Part shown: in pieces, positions 5,062-28,007 of the stretch
How positions within the stretch are numbered: position 1 is the stretch's first letter
Layout of the letters: each line of letters opens with the position of its first letter
From: Actinomycetota bacterium
GTDB lineage: Bacteria; Actinomycetota; Acidimicrobiia; Spongiisociales; UBA5794
Assembly (NCBI GenBank): GCA_030123765.1
Contig: JASJXX010000001.1
Coordinates: forward strand, 21,210-85,209
Direction: 5' to 3'
Length of the DNA: 64,000 bases
Notes under the pieces: generated by a model
What the model was told of the DNA's origin: nothing
Databases searched by the model: none
The model's input: the letters and a program-made list of their open reading frames with translations, nothing else
Program-made: the position numbers and the translations under genes

Positions 5062-6390
5062 ATGGAACGCCAGAAGGAGTATGTGCTCTCGACAGTGAAG
5101 GAGCGGGGTATCCGCTTCATCCGCCTGTGGTTCACGGACGTCCAGGGCTTCCTCAAGTCGTTCGCCATCACCCCCGCCGAACTCGAAGTCGCGCTCGATG
5201 AAGGCATGTCGTTCGATGGCAGCTCTATCGACGGGTTCGCCCGCACCCACGAGGCGGACATGCTCGCTAAGCCGGATCCCGCGACGTTCCAGATCCTCCC
5301 GTGGAGAAGTGGCGACGCTGGCGTGGCACGGATGTTCTGCGACATCGTCACCCCCGAGGGGGAGCCTTTCAGCGGTGATCCTCGCAACGTGCTGCGGCGC
5401 AACCTCGAGCGCGCCGCCGAGCTCGGTTACAGCTTCTACGTTGCACCGGAGATCGAGTATTTCTACTTCGAGGATTCGTCCGAAACCCCGAAGGTGCTCG
5501 ACAGGGGCGGCTACTTCGATCTCACGCCACTCGACGTCGCCCAGGAGTACCGGCGTTCCACGATCATGGCCCTTGAGGCGCTCGGCATCCCTGTGACGTT
5601 CAGCCACCATGAAGTCTCGCCATCCCAGCATGAGCTCGACCTTCGACACACGGACGCGCTCACGATGGCGGACAACATCATGACGACACGCCTCACGGTC
5701 AAAGAGGTCGCGATGGAGCACGGGATCTACGCGACGTTCATGCCCAAGCCGCTCGAGAAGTACGACGGGTCGGGCATGCATCTCCACCTCTCCTTGTTCC
5801 AGGGTGACGAGAATGCTTTCCACGACGAGGCGGGTGAGTACGGGTTATCGAAGGTAGCACACGGCTTCATTGCCGGTCTTCTCAAGCATGCTTCCGAGAT
5901 CACTGCCGTGACGAACCAGTGGGTCAACTCCTATAAGCGCCTTGTGAGCGGATTCGACGCCCCGACCTTCGAGACGTGGGCGAGGAACGATCAGAGCGCA
6001 CTCGTGCGCGTGCCCGCAACGAAGAAGGGGAAGATCGATTCGACACGGATCGAATTCCGCTCTCCCGACCCGGCGTGCAACCCTTACCTCGCACTCTCCG
6101 TGATCCTCGCCGCCGGCCTTGCCGGAGTCACGGGAGCCTACGAGCTGGCGCCCGAGGCCGGTTCGGACGTACTGAAGATGTCTACCGAGGAGCGGCGAGA
6201 AGCCGGGATCCGCCACATCCCGCACAGCCTCATCGACGCGATCACCCTCATGGAGGAGTCCGACCTGGTGCGCGATGCGCTCGGTGACCATGTGTTCTCC
6301 TGGTTCCTCAAGAACAAGCGACGTGAGTGGGCACGGTACGAGCAGCACGTGTCAGCGTACGAACTGAGGGAATTCCTACCGGTGTTGTGA
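5062..6390 (+). CDS. glnA2: Glutamine synthetase type I (GlnA2-like, 442 aa)
   Basis: MERQKEYVLSTVKERGIRFIRLWFTDVQGFLKSFAI...; the N-terminus closely matches GlnA2-type GSI, with the full GS catalytic-domain length. Confidence 0.9.
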   Translation: MERQKEYVLSTVKERGIRFIRLWFTDVQGFLKSFAITPAELEVALDEGMSFDGSSIDGFARTHEADMLAKPDPATFQILPWRSGDAGVARMFCDIVTPEGEPFSGDPRNVLRRNLERAAELGYSFYVAPEIEYFYFEDSSETPKVLDRGGYFDLTPLDVAQEYRRSTIMALEALGIPVTFSHHEVSPSQHELDLRHTDALTMADNIMTTRLTVKEVAMEHGIYATFMPKPLEKYDGSGMHLHLSLFQGDENAFHDEAGEYGLSKVAHGFIAGLLKHASEITAVTNQWVNSYKRLVSGFDAPTFETWARNDQSALVRVPATKKGKIDSTRIEFRSPDPACNPYLALSVILAAGLAGVTGAYELAPEAGSDVLKMSTEERREAGIRHIPHSLIDAITLMEESDLVRDALGDHVFSWFLKNKRREWARYEQHVSAYELREFLPVL

Positions 6391-7040
6391 TGTACGTAGC
6401 TCTCTATCCCGAATCGCCGTCCGCCTCTCTGACCGGGGCCCTCATCGGTGCGGGGTACCAACCGGTGCCGATCGCCGACGTTGCCGACGCCGGGCGGAAG
6501 GAGCCCTCCACCGGGTGGGCCGCCGCAGTCGTTGAGCTGGGCGACAACCCGGACATGGCGATCGCCGTTGCGAGAAAGCTGCGTGATGAGTACGACGTCC
6601 CTGTTCTCATCGTCGTCGACCGCACCCTGACGGGAGACCTGGCCGACAAGGACGGCTTCGATGACTTTCTCCTCACCCCCATCGACCAGGTAGAGCTGCG
6701 CATCAGACTGTCGAGGATCGGGGGGAGAGAGCTCGAAGCCACGGACGACCCTGTCCTGCGCTTCGGCGACCTCGAACTCAACACCGCCACTTATCAGGCG
6801 TACCTCGCGGGGAACCCCGTGGACCTCACCTACATGGAGTACGAGCTGCTGCGATTCTTCGTTGAGCACCCGAACCGAGTGTGGAGTCGCGAGCAGATCC
6901 TCTCCAAGGTCTGGGGCTACGACTACTTCGGAGGCTCACGCACCGTAGACGTCCACGTCAGGCGCCTCCGAGCCAAGCTGAGTGAGGAACGCGCCTCGTG
7001 GATCACGACCGTGCGGTCCGTCGGCTACCGCTTCGGATAG
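6390..7040 (+). CDS. glnR: OmpR-family winged-helix regulator, GlnR-like (atypical receiver domain)
   Basis: C-terminal YEYELLRFFVEHPNRVWSREQIL...TVDVHVRRLRAKL...VRSVGYRF OmpR/PhoB DNA-binding domain. ATG at 6390 overlaps the glnA2 stop (TGATG). Confidence 0.75.
   Translation: MYVALYPESPSASLTGALIGAGYQPVPIADVADAGRKEPSTGWAAAVVELGDNPDMAIAVARKLRDEYDVPVLIVVDRTLTGDLADKDGFDDFLLTPIDQVELRIRLSRIGGRELEATDDPVLRFGDLELNTATYQAYLAGNPVDLTYMEYELLRFFVEHPNRVWSREQILSKVWGYDYFGGSRTVDVHVRRLRAKLSEERASWITTVRSVGYRFG
6985..7037. repeat. Direct repeat copy 1 (~53 bp), covering the last 16 codons and stop of glnR
   Basis: tcgtggatcacgaccgtgcggtccgtcggctaccgcttcggatagcggaccc recurs at 7968-8020. Confidence 0.75.
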
Positions 7041-7130
7041 CGGACCCGTCGCCTGACAGCAAGAGATGAGACGAGTCACAGGCCGTCTTGGGATTCTCCA
7101 TGCGGTCCGATGCCAGCCGGGGGTTGCGAG

Positions 7131-7838
7131 TCAGTCGGCGTTCCCCGACTCGACGATCTCTGTCGCGAATTTGGATGCGCCTGCGATCACCCGCCCGGAT
7201 CCCAAAGCCGCTGCTGCAAAGGCGACCGACACGCCAGCCTCGACCCACGTCACGATGTCAGAGACACAGCTGCTCATGACAACGCCCGGCTTCGAAACGG
7301 AGCCGCCCGTCGACGTTCCGCTTGCGTCCCACATCCAGCCAGATTCCATACCTGTCTCGCCCAGAGGGAGTATCTGCACGGTGCCGTCCGCGTACGTGTC
7401 GATGCACCTCGGATCGAGGTGGACGAATAACACCATGAAAGCTGCAGCACCCAATACCCAGACTGCGACGACGGCGCCGAGCGCCCGAAGAATTCCCTCT
7501 GGCTTGCTCCTCGCGTACATCCAGAGCCACACGACGCCGAGCGGAATTATCACAGGGCTCAAGACCCACATGCCCAACCCCAGCGTGATCGAGAGAACAC
7601 CGGCGGCGGCGAATAGGTTCGGCCTCCCACGCATCGCGAAGAGAGCAAGCGTTGGGGGGATGCTGAGCAGCGCGACGAACGCTATGTCGCCTGCAAGGCT
7701 GAGAGACACGGGTATTTGGCTGCCGAGCGCTCTCAGAGTGACCGCCGCCGCCGCAACGACGTAGCCGAGTACAAGGGAGAGACGTGCAGCACGCCCGGCC
7801 ACCCGGACCTCCGAATTCTGCGCTGTGGGCATGAGCAA
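7131..7838 (-). CDS. Hypothetical polytopic membrane protein (235 aa) inside the repeat-flanked insert
   Basis: Several predicted TM helices. I recognise no conserved motif. Confidence 0.45.
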   Translation of the reverse strand: MLMPTAQNSEVRVAGRAARLSLVLGYVVAAAAVTLRALGSQIPVSLSLAGDIAFVALLSIPPTLALFAMRGRPNLFAAAGVLSITLGLGMWVLSPVIIPLGVVWLWMYARSKPEGILRALGAVVAVWVLGAAAFMVLFVHLDPRCIDTYADGTVQILPLGETGMESGWMWDASGTSTGGSVSKPGVVMSSCVSDIVTWVEAGVSVAFAAAALGSGRVIAGASKFATEIVESGNAD

Positions 7839-7967
7839 TCGTAGCGTTCACAGATCCAAGGACGATCCCAGCGACACCACAACTACCGCAGCACCAACCC
7901 GGGATAAAACACCTTCGTCGAACGGTGACACATCCTGCAGAACCAGATGCCGCGAGCACGGACGATC

Positions 7968-8020
7968 TGCTCGTGGATCACGACCGTGCGGTCCGTCGGC
8001 TACCGCTTCGGATAGCGGAC
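7968..8020. repeat. Direct repeat copy 2 (a duplicate of the glnR 3' end)
   Basis: Identical 53-mer to 6985-7037. The minus-strand ORFs ending at 7003 and 7978 share the C-terminal peptide ...GSAIRSGSRRTARS, which confirms the duplication. Confidence 0.75.
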
Positions 8021-8109
8021 CCATCGGCCGTCACTCCGAGCTGAGTTCTGAGATCTGTCGCACCCGTCGCGTACATTGACCATAGAGGACATGAGGAGAG
8101 GAACCGCGC

Positions 8110-8463
8110 ATGTCCAGTCTTGGAAAACGAAACGCCTTGTATGCTCGACTTGAGGAGGTACTCGGCCCAGAACACGCCGTCACTCTCATGAGCCACATCC
8201 CAACCGAAATCGACCTAGCCACCAAAGCCGACGTCGCTGCCTTGGGTGACCGGATCGACGCCCGGATAGACGGGATCGACGGCCGGTTCGAGCAAGTTGA
8301 GTCGCGCTTGGGTCGCCTTGAAGCCCACATGGTGCGATTCGACGACAAGCTCGACAGATTCCATGAAGCGCTCAGGGATCAGTCCCGCACGTACATGCTG
8401 ACAATGACCGGGGTGATGGCATCCTTCGCTGCGGTCATTATCGCGGCCGGCGTCCTCAACTGA
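8110..8463 (+). CDS. Hypothetical coiled-coil protein with a C-terminal TM anchor (117 aa)
   Basis: Heptad-like charged segment (RIDARIDGIDGRFEQVESRLGRLEAHMVRFDDKLDRFHEAL) followed by a hydrophobic tail. Confidence 0.4.
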   Translation: MSSLGKRNALYARLEEVLGPEHAVTLMSHIPTEIDLATKADVAALGDRIDARIDGIDGRFEQVESRLGRLEAHMVRFDDKLDRFHEALRDQSRTYMLTMTGVMASFAAVIIAAGVLN

Positions 8464-8464
8464 C

Positions 8465-8953
8465 TCAGCCACCCTCGAGCGTGTTCTCCGGGTGAATGCG
8501 ATGTTCGTAGTCGATGATCGGAGACTCATACGGACCGCTCATCAACGGCGACGAGATCAAGAAGTCGGCCGTTGACCGGTTGCACGCCATTGGAATGTTG
8601 TAAACCACGGCGATGCGCAAGAGCGCCTTCACGTCTACATCATGGGGTTGGGTCTGGAGCGGATCCCAGAAGAAGATGACGAGATCGATCTCGCCCTCCG
8701 CTATGCGAGCTCCGATCTGCTGATCTCCACCCAGTGGGCCGCTCTTGAACCGGGTGATGTCAAGATCGAGCTCGTCGGCGAGGATGCCTCCCGTCGTCCC
8801 GGTGGCGAAGAGGTCGTGCCCGGCAAGGACTTCCCTGTTGACTCTCGCCCATTGCAGCAGATCGGCTTTCCGATTGTCATGCGCGATGAGAGCGACGCGT
8901 TTCCGGTCGTGCATCACGCGCATCGGTACGTTTGGATCTTGGTTCTCAGCCAT
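8465..8953 (-). CDS. mgsA: Methylglyoxal synthase
   Basis: [17 protein letters not shown]...[11 protein letters not shown]...[12 protein letters not shown]...VIFFWDPL...[19 protein letters not shown]. Start set at MAENQ (ATG at 8953). Confidence 0.8.
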
Positions 8954-9126
8954 GGCCCTTCCGTTGTCGATGGCCGATTGATACCACGGTGAGACGAAGA
9001 ACAGTTGATCCCACGGTGAGTTTGGTGTAAAACTCACGCGCAGACGGCGTGCCAAGACCGGCCGTATCATGCAATCGCGAAACGGGAAACCGATCTACCG
9101 ATGAACATCTGGAAGGTGGTACGACG

Positions 9127-10095
9127 ATGAAAGCGATAGTCGTCTCCGAGCCGGGTGGGCCGGAGAAGCTCGTCCTCACCGAGGTGCGCGACCCGATCCC
9201 GGGCGACGACGAGATCCTCGTCTCTGCCATAGCTGCCGGCGTCAACTTCATCGACACCTACCACCGCAGTGGGCTCTACCCGATGGATCTCCCCTTCACG
9301 CCGGGTCTGGAGGGTGCCGGGACGATCCTCGCCGTCGGGCCTGGCGTAGCCGCGCATCGACCGGGCGACGTAATCGCGTGGACCCGGGCGGTCGGCTCGT
9401 ACGCAGAGAAGGTCGTTGTTCCCTGCGACCAGGCGATCCCACTCCCCGACAACATCTCCCCCTCGACCGCGGCAGCACTGCTGCTCCAGGGGATCACCGC
9501 CCACTACCTCGCGACCGACACCTTCCCGCTGAGAGAGGGCGACCGATGCCTGATCCACGCGGGTGCGGGCGGCGTCGGCCTCCTCCTCACCCAGATCGCC
9601 AAGATGGCTGGCGCAGAGGTCTTCACCACGGTCGGATCGCAGGAGAAAGCCCTGCTCAGTGCCGGCGCCGGGGCCGACCACGTGATCCTGTACAACGACA
9701 CAGACTTCAAAGAAGCAGTCGAGCAGATCACCGGCTCTCGGGCAATCGACGTGATCTACGACGGAGTTGGGGCGGCGACGTTCCTGAAAGGACTCGACCT
9801 GCTTCGTACCCGAGGGATGATGGTGACCTTCGGCAATGCCTCCGGACCGCCTCCAGACATCTCCCCCCTGGCCCTGGCAGGAAAAGGATCCCTCTTCCTC
9901 ACCAGACCGACAATGGCCCACTATGTGGCCACTCGTCCGGAGCTGCTGTCACGGACACGCGACCTCTTCGACTGGGTCGCCGAGGGCAGACTCGACGTGA
10001 GGATCGGCGCGGAGTTCGCTCTCGCCGACGCCGCCGAAGCCCATCGTGCCTTGGAAGGCCGAAGCACCACCGGTAAAGTTCTCATCAGACCGTAA
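9127..10095 (+). CDS. qor: NADPH:quinone oxidoreductase (zinc-free MDR family)
   Basis: MKAIVVSEPGGPEKLVL...IHAGAGGVGLLLTQIAK...GKVLIRP. Confidence 0.8.
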   Translation: MKAIVVSEPGGPEKLVLTEVRDPIPGDDEILVSAIAAGVNFIDTYHRSGLYPMDLPFTPGLEGAGTILAVGPGVAAHRPGDVIAWTRAVGSYAEKVVVPCDQAIPLPDNISPSTAAALLLQGITAHYLATDTFPLREGDRCLIHAGAGGVGLLLTQIAKMAGAEVFTTVGSQEKALLSAGAGADHVILYNDTDFKEAVEQITGSRAIDVIYDGVGAATFLKGLDLLRTRGMMVTFGNASGPPPDISPLALAGKGSLFLTRPTMAHYVATRPELLSRTRDLFDWVAEGRLDVRIGAEFALADAAEAHRALEGRSTTGKVLIRP

Positions 10096-10147
10096 GCCAA
10101 GCCGCCAGGACGCCGGAGTTGGCGACGGGGACCAACCCCAAGTCAGA

Positions 10148-10173
10148 AGGTCGTTCGGTGTGAATCACGACCT
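10148..10173. terminator. Candidate bidirectional hairpin between the convergent qor and lipoprotein genes
   Basis: AGGTCGT-12 nt-ACGACCT, a 7-bp stem. Confidence 0.3.
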
Positions 10174-10182
10174 GTCCCCCTG

Positions 10183-12201
10183 TTACCTGTCTCCGGAGAA
10201 CGGGATCCAGGCGACATCGTCCAGCGTATCCAGATCGGATGCCAGCACGCCCATCTCCGAGAAGGTGAAGAGCGTTCCGCCAATGACGAGTGATCGATTG
10301 ATCGGCGCCGTCCATCCGGAGCACTCCTCACAGCCCGGGTCATTGACGTTCGGGTGGCGGATCTCACCGATCTGTTTCACCCGCTGGGGCGTCGCGGTCA
10401 CGACGACGGCGCCGGAGAAGTGGTCGTCCTTGCCGGTCCGCGCGTCCCACGACCAACGCTGCAGCGGCAACACCGCGATGCCTTCGGGCGCCCACCACAG
10501 GAAAGCTCGGTGGTCCCACTCGGCACCTGAGTGCGCGTCGTCGAACGTGAGCTTGGCGACGCGCCTCGGGTCGTTCGGATCGGAGACGTCAAAGACAGAG
10601 ACCTGGGTGCCGAGCATGCGGCCCCCGCTAGTCGCGTCCTGCCCGACGCCGAGGAGGAGGTCCTCACCGATCGGGTGCAGATACGCCGAGTATCCGTTGA
10701 TCTTCAACTCGCCCTTGAGCTGCGGATCGGTCGGGTCAGAGAGGTCAACGACGTACAGAGGGTCGACCTGACGGAACGTCACGACGTACGCCTTCTCCTG
10801 GATGAAGCGCACGGCGTAGACCCGCTCGTTCTTCCCGAGACCATCGACCGATCCGACCTCGACGAGCTCACCCCCACGACGCTGCATCGTGACGACCGCT
10901 GTATCGGGGACGTCCGACGAGCCCCACCACGGGTTCTCATCCGTCACCACGACCCGCAGCGTCCCCTCGTACTCATCCATCGACCACTGCGAGAGCAGCC
11001 GGCCCTCAACCTCACCCGATGCGACGTACCTGGCGGTTCTAGGGTTCGTGAGGTCAAACATGTGGATCTGGGTCCACAGGGAGTCCCGAGCGTCATCCCC
11101 TTGGAAACTCGCGGCGGGCCACACCATCCACGGTGACGTCGCAACGTACAGGTTCTCAGGTGATGCGTACACGGTCTGGCCTTCAGCGAGGAGGCCGATG
11201 CTGTTGCCAGGCTCGAGGCCGCTGTCGAGATCGATGGAGAGGATCGTCATCATCGAGAGACCTGCGAACTCGGTGGGATACCCGACCTGGTCACAGCCGA
11301 GGATCGCACCGTCCGAAGTGGTTCCTGCTCGGTGATCTTTGAGGACGTACCACGGAACCCAGTTCTCGATTGTCGAGTCCTCGATCAGCTTCTTGTTCGC
11401 TTCGACCGCTCTCTGCTCTGCTCTGATCCCGCCTCCCTCGGGGAACGCCCAGTCGAAACCGATCGGTCCCGAACGAACAACAACGCGGATCGTGCCGTCG
11501 GCCATACGCGAAGAGAGGATCGTCCCATCTAGCGTGAGGGTGCGGACGGTCTCCATGGAGGAGGGGTCGGACACATCGACCTCAGAGAGGACGACCCGCT
11601 GACTGTGTCCAGGCGCGATCCGAGAGACAGCGCCGCTAAAAGCCGGCTCGATGGCGTATCCACCGCCTGAGGTCATGACGAGTAGCCGGTCACCGGAGAG
11701 GAAGAGCTGCTGGCCCCAGCCCTCAAGGCGGATCGAGGCGACGATCTCGGGGGCGCCGGACGCGTCGATCCAGAACAGACGGCCCTGAGCAACGACGAAG
11801 ATGCGCTCCCCGTCCGTCTTGACGATGTCAGGCTCATCGATGCCCGCGACCTGCACGTTCGTCCCCGAGTAGTCGACACCCTCAACGGGAGCAGCACTCA
11901 CCCTCGACCCGCCGCCATCAGCTGAGACAGACTCCTCCGTCGCGAAGGAGACGCCACTGCTGAAGGCACCGTACGAGTCGAGTCCGTACGGTCCCACCCG
12001 CTCGATCGCGTGACGCTTCACATAGTCGAGGAAGTCGCCGCATGAGTCGAAGGGCCGCAACGCCGCGGCGGCGAAAGCCCGCTCTCCCGTAGGTCCCCGG
12101 CTCTCAATCGGTCGAGTGGTGGTAGTCGTGGTGGTGGTTGTTGCGTTACATGCTGTGAGCACCAGCCCGAGGGCCACCATCGTGATCGTCATCCGTCGCA
12201 T
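10183..12201 (-). CDS. Secreted lipoprotein with a poly-Thr linker and a beta-propeller-type domain (672 aa)
   Basis: Signal peptide with lipobox LTAC, then TTTTTTTTT. The large remainder resembles the Beta_propel / COG4880 family. Confidence 0.65.
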   Translation of the reverse strand: MRRMTITMVALGLVLTACNATTTTTTTTTRPIESRGPTGERAFAAAALRPFDSCGDFLDYVKRHAIERVGPYGLDSYGAFSSGVSFATEESVSADGGGSRVSAAPVEGVDYSGTNVQVAGIDEPDIVKTDGERIFVVAQGRLFWIDASGAPEIVASIRLEGWGQQLFLSGDRLLVMTSGGGYAIEPAFSGAVSRIAPGHSQRVVLSEVDVSDPSSMETVRTLTLDGTILSSRMADGTIRVVVRSGPIGFDWAFPEGGGIRAEQRAVEANKKLIEDSTIENWVPWYVLKDHRAGTTSDGAILGCDQVGYPTEFAGLSMMTILSIDLDSGLEPGNSIGLLAEGQTVYASPENLYVATSPWMVWPAASFQGDDARDSLWTQIHMFDLTNPRTARYVASGEVEGRLLSQWSMDEYEGTLRVVVTDENPWWGSSDVPDTAVVTMQRRGGELVEVGSVDGLGKNERVYAVRFIQEKAYVVTFRQVDPLYVVDLSDPTDPQLKGELKINGYSAYLHPIGEDLLLGVGQDATSGGRMLGTQVSVFDVSDPNDPRRVAKLTFDDAHSGAEWDHRAFLWWAPEGIAVLPLQRWSWDARTGKDDHFSGAVVVTATPQRVKQIGEIRHPNVNDPGCEECSGWTAPINRSLVIGGTLFTFSEMGVLASDLDTLDDVAWIPFSGDR

Positions 12202-12306: not shown

Positions 12307-14127
12307 CTATCTCCGCTTCGCGCGCTTGCGCTCAGAGTCAGTGAGGAGAAGCTTCCTGACCCGGATCGAGGACGGGGTGACCTCCACGAGTTCGTCATCC
12401 GCTATCCACTCGATCGCGACTTCAAGGGTGACGTCACGTGGCGGCCTGAGGTTGATGGCTTCATCCGTCGAATGTGTCCGAATGTTGGTGAGTTGCTTTC
12501 CCTTGGTCGGGTTCACCGTCATGGTCTCAGGACGGGAAGCCTCCCCGATGATCATCCCCTCGTAGACCTCGACGCCCGGCCCGATGAGGAGCTCACCGCG
12601 CTTCTGTAGATTGTCGAGGGCGAACCCTGTCGACGTGCCCCGCCTGTCAGCCACCATCGCTCCGCCCTGGCGGGTAGGGAGGTCGCCCACCCACGGGATC
12701 CATCCCTCGTGGCGCTGATGCATCAGCGCCGTGCCGCGAGTGACCGTGAGGAGGAGAGACCTGAGTCCGAGCAGACCTCGCGTCGGGGCCGTGAACGTCA
12801 CGATCGTCCGGCCCGAATCTCCCGGCCTGAGTTCGGTGACGCGGCCCTTACGGGGAGCCACAACCTGGGTAACCGCACCAACATACTGCTCGGGTACATC
12901 GACCGTCACGCGCTCGACAGGCTCGTGCTTGACGCCGTCGATCTCCCTGACGATTACCTCAGGCCGGCTGACCTGAAGCTCGAAACCTTCACGTCGCATC
13001 GACTCGATCAGCACGCTGAGTTGCAATTCGCCGCGACCCGCTACCTCGGTCATCTCAGGAGACGACGTCTCAGCGATCCGGATCGATACGTTGCCGAGCA
13101 CTTCGCGTTCAAGACGGTCACGGATCTGGCGCGACGTCACGAATGTGCCCTCGGTGCCTGCCAGGGGAGACGTGTTGACACCGAACGTCATGCGCAGCAC
13201 CGGCTCGTCTACCTCGAGCCGCGGCAGGACTTCGATCGTCTCGGTGTCGGAGAACGTGTCGCCGATCCCGACATCGGGGAAACCAGCGACGACGAAGAGG
13301 TCGCCCGCTTGACGCTCATCGACGTTCTCCCTCCCGAGGTTCGCGAACCCCATGAGAGTGCCAATCTTCCGCACGATCGGAGGCTTGCCGTCGCCCTTTA
13401 GGAGCGCGACTCTCTCTCCTGCACGGAGTGTGCCTCTGATGACGCGCCCGATCGCGAGGCGTCCGAGATAGTCCGACGCATCGAGATTCGTCACGAGAGC
13501 TTGAAGCGGTGCGTCAGGATCGCCTTGTGGCGCCGGGAGTGCGTGGACGATTGCGTCGAGCACGGGACCGAGCGTGTCAGATGGCCCTGGCACGCCTATG
13601 CCTTCGATCGCCAGTCCTTTGCGCGCGATGACAGAGAGGATGGGGAACTCGATGTGGTGGTCTTCCGCTTCGAGGTCGAAAAACAGTTCGTATATCTCGT
13701 CCACGACCTCAGCGGTGCGAGCATCGGAGCGGTCAACCTTGTTCACCACTACGACGGCAGGGAGATGGCGCTCAAGAGCCTTAGAGAGCACATACCGCGT
13801 CTGGGGCATCGGCCCATCGGCCGCATCGACGAGAAGGAGGACACCGTCAACGAGCGCGAGCGCCCGCTCAACCTCGCCACCGAAGTCGGCGTGGCCGGGT
13901 GTATCAACCAGGTTGATCTTCGTCCCCTTCCACCCAATCGAAGCGGCCTTCGCGAGGATCGTGATGCCCCGCTCGCGTTCCTGGTCGCTTGAATCCATGA
14001 CGCGATCGACGGGTCGCTCATGGTCGGCGAAGACACCTGCGACGCGCAGCATGGCGTCGACGAGCGTCGTCTTGCCATGGTCGACGTGCGCGATGAGCGC
14101 GACATTGCGCAGAGAGAGGGAGGGCAT
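12307..14127 (-). CDS. typA: Translational GTPase TypA/BipA
   Basis: NVALIAHVDHGKTTLVD...DTPGHADFGGEVER...NKVDR; 606 aa with the EF-G-like domain layout. Confidence 0.95.
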   Translation of the reverse strand: MPSLSLRNVALIAHVDHGKTTLVDAMLRVAGVFADHERPVDRVMDSSDQERERGITILAKAASIGWKGTKINLVDTPGHADFGGEVERALALVDGVLLLVDAADGPMPQTRYVLSKALERHLPAVVVVNKVDRSDARTAEVVDEIYELFFDLEAEDHHIEFPILSVIARKGLAIEGIGVPGPSDTLGPVLDAIVHALPAPQGDPDAPLQALVTNLDASDYLGRLAIGRVIRGTLRAGERVALLKGDGKPPIVRKIGTLMGFANLGRENVDERQAGDLFVVAGFPDVGIGDTFSDTETIEVLPRLEVDEPVLRMTFGVNTSPLAGTEGTFVTSRQIRDRLEREVLGNVSIRIAETSSPEMTEVAGRGELQLSVLIESMRREGFELQVSRPEVIVREIDGVKHEPVERVTVDVPEQYVGAVTQVVAPRKGRVTELRPGDSGRTIVTFTAPTRGLLGLRSLLLTVTRGTALMHQRHEGWIPWVGDLPTRQGGAMVADRRGTSTGFALDNLQKRGELLIGPGVEVYEGMIIGEASRPETMTVNPTKGKQLTNIRTHSTDEAINLRPPRDVTLEVAIEWIADDELVEVTPSSIRVRKLLLTDSERKRAKRR

Positions 14128-22558: not shown

Positions 22559-22643
22559 GACAGGAACGTAGTACGCATCGCGTACCACGGGGTACAAGAC
22601 GCTTCGGTCCAGCGAAGGGCTGCGGGTGTTTATCCTGCTCCGA

Positions 22644-23987
22644 ATGGACCTGCGTGATCTGCCCTCCGTAACGACCCTCGCCGACGACATCGCGAGAGGA
22701 TCCACTCTCCCTCGACCTGTCATCACCCAGGTGTGCCAGGAAGCGATCGACCAGACGCGCGAAGCGATTCAATCCGGCAGGGATGCCGATGCCGGAGCTC
22801 TGGCGGCCGCAGCACTCGCCGACATCGAGGCAGCACGTCCGCGCTCGGTTATCAACGCAACGGGTGTGCTCCTCCATACGAACCTCGGCAGGGCCCGTGT
22901 GAGCCACTCCGTCGCCGCCGCGTCCTCGACGATCCAGTCAGCGGCGAGCAACGTCGAGATCGACCTACGCACCGGCCGAAGATCTAGCCGCTCCACGTAT
23001 CTGCGAGTCCTGCTCCCTGTCGTCACCGGGTCCGAGGACGGATTCGCGGTGAACAACAACGCCGGTGCTCTATTGCTCGCGCTCGCTTCCATCCCCGGTC
23101 AAGCCAGACAAGTAGCAGTATCACGAGGCGAGCTCATCGAGATCGGTGGCTCTTTCCGCCTCCCCGATCTCATGGCTGCAAGTGGCGTACAACTCGTCGA
23201 AGTCGGCACTACGAATCGGACGCGCCTCTCCGACTACGCGGCGGTCGCCGCTTCGGTCGATGCGCTACTGAAGGTCCACCCCTCCAATTACCGGGTCGAG
23301 GGTTTCCAGGAGGAAGCGAGCTACGCCGATCTCGCCGAGCTCGCCCACTCCCACGGCATCCCGTTCCTCGCGGACGTGGGAAGCGGCCTCATCGACGAAG
23401 CCGCTCCGTGGCTAGCAGACTCCGACCGCCGCTGGCTGGCGGGCGAGCCGGGCGTCAAACAGACGATTGCAGATGGTGCCGACCTCGTCCTGTTCTCCGG
23501 CGACAAGCTGCTTGGTGGCCCCCAAGCAGGCATCATCGTCGGCACACACGACGCTGTTGAGCGGGCCGCGCGCCACCCGATCGCACGAGCCGTGCGGCTC
23601 GACGGCTCGCGTATCGCTGCTGTCGCGGCGACGCTCGAGAGCTACGCGCATCATCGCGTTGACAACCTCCCGTTCTGGGCGATGGCCGGCGCGAGCGTCA
23701 CCGACATCAATGAGCGGGCACACGAGGTGATCCGCGGTCTGTCTCCGGGCATACGCATCGTCGACGGGCGCTCCATCCCCGGTGCGGGATCGGTCCCCGG
23801 CGCGACCATCCCCACGAAACTGATCGAGCTACCCGGTCCAGCGGACGGTATGTGGTCGGGGTTGGCGGCCTGCGAACCACCCGTCATCGCGAGCCGTCGC
23901 GAGGCGCACACACTTCTCGACCTGCGATCGGTGCTCCCGGATGACGACGCGAACGTCGCCGCCGCTCTCCGAAGAGTTTTGAGCTGA
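22644..23987 (+). CDS. selA: L-seryl-tRNA(Sec) selenium transferase
   Basis: DLRDLPSV...VINATGVLLHTNLGRA...SGDKLLGGPQAGIIVG...; the length and motifs are typical of SelA. Confidence 0.85.
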   Translation: MDLRDLPSVTTLADDIARGSTLPRPVITQVCQEAIDQTREAIQSGRDADAGALAAAALADIEAARPRSVINATGVLLHTNLGRARVSHSVAAASSTIQSAASNVEIDLRTGRRSSRSTYLRVLLPVVTGSEDGFAVNNNAGALLLALASIPGQARQVAVSRGELIEIGGSFRLPDLMAASGVQLVEVGTTNRTRLSDYAAVAASVDALLKVHPSNYRVEGFQEEASYADLAELAHSHGIPFLADVGSGLIDEAAPWLADSDRRWLAGEPGVKQTIADGADLVLFSGDKLLGGPQAGIIVGTHDAVERAARHPIARAVRLDGSRIAAVAATLESYAHHRVDNLPFWAMAGASVTDINERAHEVIRGLSPGIRIVDGRSIPGAGSVPGATIPTKLIELPGPADGMWSGLAACEPPVIASRREAHTLLDLRSVLPDDDANVAAALRRVLS

Positions 23988-23988
23988 C

Positions 23989-25758
23989 GTGCCGATCGTT
24001 GGCACGGCAGGTCACGTCGACCACGGCAAGTCAACGCTCGTTCAGGCACTCACGGGCCGAGACCCGGACCGGTGGGCGGAGGAGAAGGAGCGCGGCCTGA
24101 CGATCGACCTCGGTTTCGCCTGGACCGAGATCGAAGGCATCGACGTCGGGTTCGTGGATGTGCCGGGACATGAGCGCTTCATCAAGAACATGCTCGCCGG
24201 TGTCGGAGGCATCGACTGTGCCCTCCTCGTAGTTGCGGCCGACGGTGGATGGATGCCCCAGACAGAGGAGCACGCGGCGGTACTCGACCTGCTCGACACC
24301 AGGGCCGGCGTCATCGCTCTCACCCGAATCGACCTCGTCGATGACGACACGCGAGAACTCGCAGCGCTCGAGATCATGGAGGAGACCGCCGGAACGGTGC
24401 TCGCGGACTGGCCGATTGTGCCCGTGTCCCCCATCACGGGGGAGGGTCTTGATGAGTTGCGCGCGCAGCTGGCTACAGCCCTCGGCCGTCACAAGCCGCT
24501 GGTGGCCGGACCGCTGCGCATGTGGATCGACCGGTCCTTCACGATCAGCGGCGCGGGGGTCGTCGTCACGGGAACCGTCTCAGGCGGTCGGATCGCCATC
24601 GGAGACGAGGTTGCGATCCTCCCAGGAGGCCGCTCTGACCGCGTCAGGGGCCTCCACCATCACGACCATGCGGTCGATGAAGCCAGCGCGGGATCACGAA
24701 CGGCGATCAACCTCCAGTCTTCCTCGCTCACCGATGTGCCTCGTGGGACCTTGATCTGCACACCGGGGACGATCGCGGAGACCGGGCGCATCCTCACGAC
24801 CATCGAGCCGGCACGCGGCTTCGATGAAATTCCTCCACGCGGCGCCTTCCACGTCCACCTCGGAACGGCACACATTCCGGTCCAGATCAGGCAGCTTCAC
24901 GACTCCAACGCGTACATGCTCACCCTCTCAGACGTGCTCCCCGTAGCCATCGGTGATCGATTCATCCTACGCGACACCGGCCGGAGAGCAGTCGTCGGCG
25001 GCGGTCGGGTACTCGACCCACGACCCGCGGATCGAGTCTCGATGGAGACGATCGAACTTCTCGCAGGATCCCTCGACCGTCCAGTGCGCGACGTGGCGGA
25101 TGCCCTCCTCACCGTGCGCGGGATCACCCGCGCAGACGACCTGGCAGAGGCGGCAGGGGGAGTGGCTCCGTCCTGCGGAACGCGCGCGGGACCACTCATC
25201 ATCTCCGAAGCAGCGATCGCCGACATCGCTCTGCGCATTACCGACATCGTCGGGAGATATCACGACGCGCATCCGCTTCGCCCAGGAATGGCAAAGCCAG
25301 AAGTCGCCACCCGGATCGGTTTGGACCTCGCTGTGATCGAGGCCACGGTTCGAGAGTCGGAGAGCCTTCGCGAGTCGAACGGGTCCATTCATCTCGTCGA
25401 CTTCGTCAACGCTCTGACACCCCAGCAGGAGTCAACATGGGAGAGGGTACGATCCGACCTCGAAGCATCGTACGACGTACCGAGGATGGGCGTCATCGAC
25501 CTGGACTCTGAGCTGCTTCATGCGCTGGTACGGCGCGGTGACCTCATCCAGGTAGCGCCCGACCTCGTCTTCACCCAACGTCAGGTCAACAGCCTCACCC
25601 AACGTCTCGGCGAACTCCCTGAGGGCTTCACGGTCTCGCAGTTCAAGGAGGCGTTCGGCATGACCAGGCGCCAGGCGATACCCACACTCGAGTGGCTCGA
25701 CAAGTCGGGGTGGACCCGAAGGTCAGGAGACGGCAGGTCCCTCAGACGACGGACGTAG
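23989..25758 (+). CDS. selB: Selenocysteine-specific elongation factor
   Basis: IVGTAGHVDHGKSTLV...DVPGHERFIKNM...; an EF-Tu-like GTPase with a long C-terminal winged-helix extension (589 aa). It is separated from the selA stop by 1 nt. Confidence 0.85.
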   Translation: MPIVGTAGHVDHGKSTLVQALTGRDPDRWAEEKERGLTIDLGFAWTEIEGIDVGFVDVPGHERFIKNMLAGVGGIDCALLVVAADGGWMPQTEEHAAVLDLLDTRAGVIALTRIDLVDDDTRELAALEIMEETAGTVLADWPIVPVSPITGEGLDELRAQLATALGRHKPLVAGPLRMWIDRSFTISGAGVVVTGTVSGGRIAIGDEVAILPGGRSDRVRGLHHHDHAVDEASAGSRTAINLQSSSLTDVPRGTLICTPGTIAETGRILTTIEPARGFDEIPPRGAFHVHLGTAHIPVQIRQLHDSNAYMLTLSDVLPVAIGDRFILRDTGRRAVVGGGRVLDPRPADRVSMETIELLAGSLDRPVRDVADALLTVRGITRADDLAEAAGGVAPSCGTRAGPLIISEAAIADIALRITDIVGRYHDAHPLRPGMAKPEVATRIGLDLAVIEATVRESESLRESNGSIHLVDFVNALTPQQESTWERVRSDLEASYDVPRMGVIDLDSELLHALVRRGDLIQVAPDLVFTQRQVNSLTQRLGELPEGFTVSQFKEAFGMTRRQAIPTLEWLDKSGWTRRSGDGRSLRRRT

Positions 25759-27878: not shown

Positions 27879-27930
27879 CCGCAAGGCAGGAACCGATAGA
27901 GGAGCTATACACTCCCCGCCATCGGGACGT

Positions 27931-28007
27931 GGCGCAGCTTGGTAGCGCGCATCGTTCGGGACGATGAGGCCGTCGGTTCGAATCCGACCGTCCCGACCAA
28001 GCCCCTC
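27931..28007 (+). tRNA. tRNA-Pro (anticodon CGG)
   Basis: Folded by hand. Acceptor CGGGACG/CGTCCCG, D-stem GCGC/GCGC, anticodon stem CATCG/CGATG with loop TTCGGGA, T-arm GTCGG-TTCGAAT-CCGAC, discriminator A and an encoded CCA. Confidence 0.85.

Follow-up and report, generated by a model that had tools for sequence, protein, structure and literature searches.

A strain-variable 975-bp segment bounded by duplicated glnR ends in a metagenome-assembled actinobacterial genome

We analyzed a 64,000-nucleotide stretch of DNA (hereafter the window), which is part of a 97.6-kb contig of a metagenome-assembled Actinomycetota genome at NCBI (proteins MDK1017806-08), and focused on the segment that follows the nitrogen-regulator gene glnR. 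This segment is a strain-variable presence/absence polymorphism of 975 bp, whose breakpoints are set by a 53-bp duplication of the glnR tail and which leaves GlnR intact. We tentatively read it as a non-autonomous islet, resembling the cis-mobilizable elements (CIMEs), that would have arisen by a Campbell-type crossover at an att-like glnR tail and would be lost precisely via its repeats; we regard this reading as quite possibly correct, if somewhat short of an even chance.

A presence/absence polymorphism at the glnR tail

The direct repeat is identical at 53/53 positions, and its two copies start 975 bp apart (Table 1). The repeated 53-mer, CTCGTGGATCACGACCGTGCGGTCCGTCGGCTACCGCTTCGGATAGCGGACCC, comprises (i) one nucleotide of the preceding codon, (ii) the last 14 full codons of glnR (SWITTVRSVGYRFG), (iii) the stop codon, and (iv) 7 nt beyond it. 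Even with up to three mismatches allowed, it has exactly two matches in the window, and none were obtained in 100 dinucleotide-preserving shuffles. An earlier note on this DNA had described a perfect 53-bp direct repeat of the glnR 3' end, which our comparison confirmed; its spacing of 983 bp is corrected to 975 bp, its between-copies segment of 7038-7967 to 7048-7969 (922 bp), and its 16 repeated codons to 14 full codons and the single nucleotide of the codon before them. The search for the 53-mer elsewhere that it had proposed revealed, within the window, the two copies and no others. Because copy 1 holds the last 14 codons and the stop of glnR, the GlnR protein is unaltered by the insertion.

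The two sides of the duplication are not alike. At 7969/7970, immediately upstream of copy 2, the edge is abrupt: the in-register identity of 6935-6994 versus 7910-7969 is no better than in shuffles, and we accordingly rejected the possibility of degenerate glnR sequence preceding copy 2. After the repeat copies, the first 23 positions agree at 14/23 (shuffle p ~6e-4, for a length chosen post hoc). A sharp upstream edge, together with a downstream decay of similarity, is expected if the incoming DNA bore the glnR end plus some downstream sequence, and this asymmetry would be compatible with a surrogate gene end borne by an element as well as with a linear fragment of a related strain's DNA. 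As a side observation from reading the sequence, the right end of the insert contains an ATG that lies in frame with the displaced glnR tail and opens a putative 22-codon open reading frame (ORF) at 7947-8015 on the plus strand (MPRARTICSWITTVRSVGYRFG, followed by a stop).

The junctions recur in four independent assemblies, of which two (contigs L084 and L090) used k=141. L084 (megahit, k=141) and L083 connect glnA and glnR, via the repeat, to the insert, and the 4.5-kb contig L090 (megahit, k=141) runs from a beta-propeller gene by way of a quinone reductase gene (QOR), a methylglyoxal synthase gene (MGS), and the small gene p117 to the repeat, then across the entire insert and into copy 1. 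Since a k of 141 exceeds the 53-bp repeat, both junctions must exist in the reads. Further, two unitigs from Logan (L001 and L002) measure 982 bp, which corresponds to 30+922+30 with cuts exactly inside the repeat at k=31; as this unitig occurs in 16 samples, the insert is bounded by the repeat on both sides wherever it is seen. An artefact could have come about through a wrong walk through the repeat node, or through the collapse of an empty site with an unrelated circular molecule, and it would find some support in the graph loop that the repeat forms at k=31 and in the origin of the window from a metagenome-assembled genome. However, the k=141 contigs hold both glnR-repeat-insert (L084) and insert-repeat-p117 (L090), and an independent 4058-bp scaffold from a different sample (L101) spans the entire structure, covering 6695-10752 in the order glnR-repeat-insert-repeat-p117-MGS-QOR with 99.46% identity. 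As far as assemblies can show, these contigs lead us to reject an artefact, which we consider exceedingly improbable, and the second repeat copy, which the earlier note had allowed might be artefactual, is real.

The empty form of the site is seen in L086 (Logan, SRR28295998, 1714 bp), in which glnR (6888-6994) is followed by one repeat and then by 8023-9576, with 99.7% identity to the window. In this allele, p117 starts 88 nt past the repeat, directly after glnR; the precise single-copy site that the earlier note had proposed to look for has thus been found. Further, L089 (megahit, k=141), from a sample shared with the occupied contig L084, starts exactly at 7970, where the occupied and the empty paths would merge.

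We also compared the locus with those of 80 related genomes (species-level relatives). The GlnR relatives come nearly all from Acidimicrobiia metagenome-assembled genomes, many of them marine or hydrothermal, and the glnR tail is highly conserved among them. The insert is absent from 80/80 of these glnR loci, as is the larger segment of 7048-10182, which comprises the membrane-protein gene, p117, MGS, and QOR. Because the 8023-10182 block is also missing near glnR in all 80, the space after glnR has acquired DNA on more than one occasion. Relatives whose GlnR is 70% identical have, immediately after glnR, either an aldehyde dehydrogenase (ALDH) block (window 15593+) or the beta-propeller gene (window 10183-12201) and then this block, and L008 and L009 have the beta-propeller gene directly after glnR. 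As read from these loci, gene content after glnR differs among genera. Just past the glnR stop, some relatives contain short repeated or palindromic sequences of 16-29 nt (L021:6698-6715 and 12380-12436; L035:6725-6753). The L021 copies recur ~5.7 kb away, and the L021 and L035 sequences, which are not glnR coding, may be repetitive-extragenic-palindrome (REP)-like or terminator elements.

Table 1. Coordinates of the features at and around the glnR tail (window positions)
Feature	Position	Strand	Remarks
glnA, type I glutamine synthetase	5062..6390	+	Pfam Gln-synt_C 7e-118, Gln-synt_N
glnR-like OmpR-family regulator, 216 aa	6390..7040	+	Trans_reg_C 4e-28; NCBI MDK1017806.1
Repeat copy 1, attL-like	6995..7047	+	glnR tail, stop, and 7 nt; invariant in all covering strain contigs
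Inserted unique segment	7048..7969		922 bp; 83-bp left spacer, membrane-protein gene, 137-bp right spacer
Cargo gene	7131..7832	-	233-aa polytopic membrane protein, unannotated family
Repeat copy 2, attR-like	7970..8022	+	Non-coding, displaced glnR-tail copy
Native DNA downstream of glnR	8023..8045	+	Weak in-register likeness to insert left end 7048-7070
p117, coiled-coil with C-terminal membrane anchor	8110..8463	+	Right-hand neighbour; no family match

The cargo gene and its variation among strains

The insert has room for one gene only. The membrane-protein ORF that the earlier note had placed at 7131-7838 (235 aa) stands as the sole credible gene, with its start moved from a TTG at 7838 to the ATG that defines the shorter frame in Table 1. 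Its GC content by codon position is 0.63/0.53/0.74, which is genome-typical, whereas overlapping long ORFs show the wrong pattern, and the ORF is further supported by 9 homologous clusters that share a conserved motif. The protein has ~6 helices, a small Cys-containing beta ectodomain, and a C-terminal helix; it gave no Pfam or NCBIfam match, and its family of membrane proteins, which comprises 287 clusters, is unannotated. Homologs of the polytopic membrane protein described in the earlier note were thus found, within an unannotated family. Within the ORF, on its coding strand and at the most conserved protein motif, Rfam reports only a Glutamine-II match at 7377-7428 (minus strand), which is a curious location near glnA and glnR; its score is sub-threshold (19.9 bits versus a gathering threshold of 33; E=0.089), and we judge that a riboswitch here is probably a chance match.

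Homologs of the cargo elsewhere share a conserved neighbourhood of a CLP1_P-type ATPase, an acetyl-CoA synthetase, two small genes, and an MFS transporter, and those of a further lineage lie beside an enoyl-CoA hydratase; no flanking repeats were found around the homologs in these other lineages. Because the homologs occupy a different conserved context that lacks repeats, we consider the cargo gene to have been relocated to the glnR tail. One relative in which glnR is followed by the beta-propeller gene carries a cargo homolog on a separate contig, and JGI metagenomes contained only 2 distant matches. Against 72% homologs, similarity of the window is confined to the ORF and ~15 nt upstream of its start and stops at the stop codon; since the similarity to the native context of these homologs ends at the ORF limits, the insert flanks are silent on origin. 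By these contexts, the cargo is a member of an ordinary chromosomal gene family that has evidently been moved to the glnR tail. Among side observations in the ATPase/acetyl-CoA-synthetase context, a DUF7387-HicA toxin-antitoxin-like pair with small ORFs lies at L091:1907-2337 and at L095:2119-2319; the pair and extra ORFs are inserted between these genes and the cargo homolog in some genomes of that lineage, not in L097, and a palindromic operator-like sequence is present upstream of the cargo homolog in the same lineage.

Comparisons between strains separate the cargo from its flanks. Relative to the window, L083 shows 4/2148 differences in its glnA-glnR flank (99.8% identical) but 28/376 in the insert. 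The L083 cargo allele is mosaic (L083:2150-2524, corresponding to window 7048-7423), with its 5'-most ~90 sequenced nt sharing 96% identity with the homolog that a different species in the same study carries (L095), and it carries 13 amino-acid changes in 97 residues, which fall mostly in the ectodomain and include the nearly invariant Trp of a VTW motif. In contrast, the insert of L101 shows 1/922 differences from the window and that of L090 one difference, while their p117-MGS regions contain 19 and 15 differences, respectively, within ~460 bp. Given these opposite divergence patterns, cargo and flanks have decoupled histories, which in our alignments points to exchange by recombination at the locus, with no enzyme being indicated. 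The predicted cargo is an expressed-looking, conserved membrane protein, the exposed Cys-containing loop of which varies between strains.

The occupied form occurs on two flanking haplotypes (the window type and the L090/L101 type), and the empty form has a variant at 6971 in common with the occupied contigs L083 and L084; therefore, presence or absence does not simply track strain divergence. Separately, the p117 3' half and MGS (8319-8780) form a polymorphism hot spot, with 15-19 differences between the window and L088, L090, or L101, and L089 holds yet another haplotype in this interval. In the low-coverage contig L102:1-822 (coverage 1.15), a 96.9% match to cargo positions 7920-7398 gives way to unrelated DNA that encodes an ORF on the opposite strand; this contig represents a chimera or, alternatively, an allele truncated or rearranged at a breakpoint close to 7398.

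Possible origins of the segment

In the CIME-like reading that we tentatively favour, one reciprocal Campbell-type crossover would have taken place between the glnR tail of the chromosome and a 53-bp tail of identical sequence on circular DNA, with the resulting repeats acting as attL and attR. The element would supply a surrogate glnR end, so that GlnR stays intact, and the original end would have been displaced to the position of copy 2. The islet would then either be what is left of a larger, decayed integrative element or be a cassette whose movement depends on an enzyme that it does not itself encode, and its repeats would allow precise loss via the same enzyme or via RecA, restoring a single-copy site as in L086. 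As the unit contains no recombinase, the islet is taken to be non-autonomous, and as its repeats permit precise homologous loss, the empty allele may be either ancestral or derived. We infer the circular intermediate, the involvement of a site-specific recombinase, and the direction of change (gain or loss). From the earlier note's proposal of site-specific integration, the insertion geometry that restores the glnR terminus holds and is joined by the empty site; the action of a site-specific recombinase is putative. Among the features that define an autonomous integrative element, the locus shows target-duplicating repeats and an unoccupied site but no internal recombinase. CIMEs are decayed integrative elements that keep attL and attR and have lost the genes for integration and transfer (PMC5704250); the glnR insert matches this definition, with its repeats as putative att sites. 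In favour of this reading are the perfect repeat that restores the glnR end, the two junctions in k=141 contigs together with L101, the empty site of L086 and the start of L089 at 7970, and the presence of the repeat on either side of the insert in all 16 samples. The asymmetric edges, the relocated cargo, the decoupled histories of cargo and flanks, and the existence of a described class of elements that have kept attL and attR without integration genes (PMC5704250, PMC3146451) point the same way.

Several results weigh against this reading. Neither an integrase nor a transposase was found in the insert or anywhere in the 64 kb (Pfam and inspection of ORFs), where all long ORFs are housekeeping by Pfam or by inspection, and the earlier note's remark that no integrase is present is thus borne out for both. 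There is no nearby tRNA, the sole tRNA of the window being 20 kb distant, and when the glnR 3' region was compared with the whole window by BLAST at word size 7, no third or degenerate copy of the glnR tail and no tandem array were detected. The insert and the repeat themselves show (i) no arm-type repeats common to the insert ends above chance; (ii) no terminal inverted repeats, the ends matching at 7/40 positions with one reverse-complemented; (iii) dyad symmetry in the repeat of 6 bp at most; (iv) an RNA or DNA fold of the repeat no more stable than that of shuffles; and (v) no difference in GC content, or in GC content at third codon positions (GC3), from the flanks. Beyond the window, the duplicated glnR tail occurs in 0/80 related genomes, viral contigs contain neither the 53-mer nor a degenerate glnR-tail pattern, and the cargo protein was not found in viral contigs, phages, or plasmids. 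The 975-bp unit is, moreover, far smaller than described decayed elements, and the empty site is represented by one k=31 Logan contig and one contig end.

Related searches were likewise negative. No consensus sites for sigma-70 promoters or intrinsic terminators were found, the 53-mer is absent from JGI metagenome contigs, and no cognate functional element or integrase sharing the att-like glnR-tail site was detected in the 80 relatives, viral contigs, or JGI metagenome contigs, the search of this genome itself being limited to the window. Compositional foreignness of the insert, a comparison that the earlier note had suggested, was rejected, as the equal GC and GC3 values carry no foreign signature, and tandem accretion at the glnR tail was ruled out, since there is no further tail copy within the window. 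A transposon, insertion sequence (IS), or miniature inverted-repeat transposable element (MITE) was ruled out by the missing terminal inverted repeats and by a duplication of 53 bp as opposed to the short 2-15 bp; an integron gene cassette was ruled out because there is no attC-like palindrome or inverted repeat, no fold above shuffle level, and no integron integrase.

A stronger version of the CIME-like reading holds that the 975-bp unit is an active minimal non-autonomous cassette, which would be excised as a circle and re-integrated at the glnR tail by a recombinase encoded elsewhere in the genome, with alleles being exchanged between strains. We consider this improbable; if true, no smaller att-bounded integrative unit would have been described, and none would have been known before from uncultured marine Acidimicrobiia-like Actinomycetota.

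As the main rival explanation, the same junctions could have arisen through a one-off homology-facilitated illegitimate recombination of linear DNA, which would need neither an att site nor a recombinase. Here, a fragment from a related strain would have recombined on its homologous side in glnR or in the p117-big672 region and formed an illegitimate joint, typically involving microhomology of a few bases, at 7969/7970; the 53 bp that separate this joint from the limit of the homology would have been duplicated as a by-product, and later presence or absence would reflect ordinary homologous exchange or deletion between the repeats. Several of our observations agree with such an event, namely, the abrupt right boundary at 7969/7970 with nothing similar upstream, the missing recombinase, arm sites, and inverted repeats, its uniqueness among the 80 relatives, and the host-like composition expected for a donor of the same lineage. 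In addition, the variability of the glnR-to-ALDH region among relatives and the mosaic strain haplotypes imply that recombination is active here. Recombination of this type is on record for several bacteria and has been put forward to explain comparable arrays of displaced genes (PMC5361080, PMC3240628). However, the donor arrangement that it predicts was never observed: the insert unitig of 16 samples ends in the repeat on both sides, and every longer contig reads insert-repeat. Homology-facilitated illegitimate recombination also usually yields deletions or replacements, not duplications. On balance, we hold this explanation to be rather unlikely, though deserving of serious weight.

A staggered double-strand break could also have captured the insert, in that nicks 53 nt apart would be filled in and a 922-bp fragment end-joined, leaving a 53-bp target-site-like duplication. 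This would account for the perfect identity of the copies and the sharp upstream edge of the duplication, as well as for the missing recombinase and terminal repeats, and Ku/LigD end joining, which it could draw on, is present in many Actinomycetota. Yet the 14/23 in-register similarity past the repeat is unexpected from a fill-in duplication, the captured fragment would have to be exactly one complete gene with its flanks, and the divergent cargo allele in an almost identical background would be left unexplained. Moreover, we know of no system that produces 53-bp duplications, and we regard staggered-break capture as very unlikely.

Neighbouring genes, known systems, and significance

The regulator gene in which the repeat lies is identified by its neighbour: glnA adjoins the regulator in 79/80 related loci, and the glnA neighbour thereby fixes the gene downstream of it as glnR. 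The glnR ATG overlaps the glnA stop, and a type II glutamine synthetase gene lies upstream of glnA on the opposite strand. In Pfam, the GlnR protein matches an OmpR-type C-terminal domain and gives no Response_reg match, and its best solved-structure matches are the OmpR-family regulators 8hig/8hih (1e-35), which we take to be GlnR entries. The name glnR is thus reasonable from the domain match, the structure matches, and the linkage to glnA. On the right-hand side, p117 is followed by MGS (NF003559, 4e-64) and then by QOR, an NADPH:quinone reductase. Elsewhere in the window, selA-like and selB-like genes were recognized by eye from their translations at 22626-25758, a tRNA-Pro lies at 27923-27999, and ARAGORN reported no tRNA-Sec within the window.

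With CIMEs, and with the 15 Dehalococcoides ssrA genomic islands that have no integration module and exemplify a CIME-like class (PMC3146451), the glnR insert shares repeats that duplicate the 3' end of a conserved single-copy gene, a reconstituted target, the absence of an internal recombinase, strain-specific cargo, and a single-copy site in other strains. It differs in that it is only 975 bp long with one gene, whereas the described examples are kilobases long, and in that neither an intact sister element nor a cognate integrase at the glnR tail was found among the 80 relatives and viral contigs, and no tandem accretion is seen. The glnR repeat is also longer than that of the ssrA islands (53 bp versus 20 bp), and its target is a protein-coding regulator gene.

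Elements that enter the 3' ends of protein genes and bring a surrogate end are known, and include staphylococcal cassette chromosome (SCC) and pseudo-SCC elements at rlmH/orfX, ICESt1 and ICESt3 at fda, and the prophages 21 and e14 at icd. Like the glnR insert, they have a duplicated gene end, a preserved coding sequence, and an identity block that is sharp on the element side; unlike it, for which no recombinase is identifiable, they encode or borrow specific recombinases. The glnR block is also perfect and longer than the SCC repeats.

The insert further resembles the arrays of displaced effector/immunity genes and Rhs C-terminal ends, in which DNA is added beside an anchor gene, a displaced fragment lies downstream, and a recombinase is unnecessary (PMC5361080); however, the glnR fragment is only 53 bp long, perfectly identical, and the product of a single event, and its anchor lies outside polymorphic toxin systems. 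In its small size and its content of a single gene, it is also like IS elements, MITEs, and integron cassettes, which carry one gene or none, but its 53-bp duplication is several-fold longer than the target-site duplications made by transposases.

As it stands, the locus is an ordinary small repeat-bounded indel, a structure of a familiar kind from a little-studied lineage, and it does not constitute a new type of system. It nevertheless provides a clean natural marker, with occupied and empty alleles in near-identical strains, which is usable for following strain dynamics and recombination, and it ties a small, conserved, and unannotated membrane-protein family to a locus that differs between strains. 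Provided that the repeats function as att sites, a nitrogen-regulator gene would offer its 3' end as a landing pad, and single genes would be shuttled into and out of a fixed chromosomal site without a linked recombinase in this uncultured marine actinobacterial lineage.

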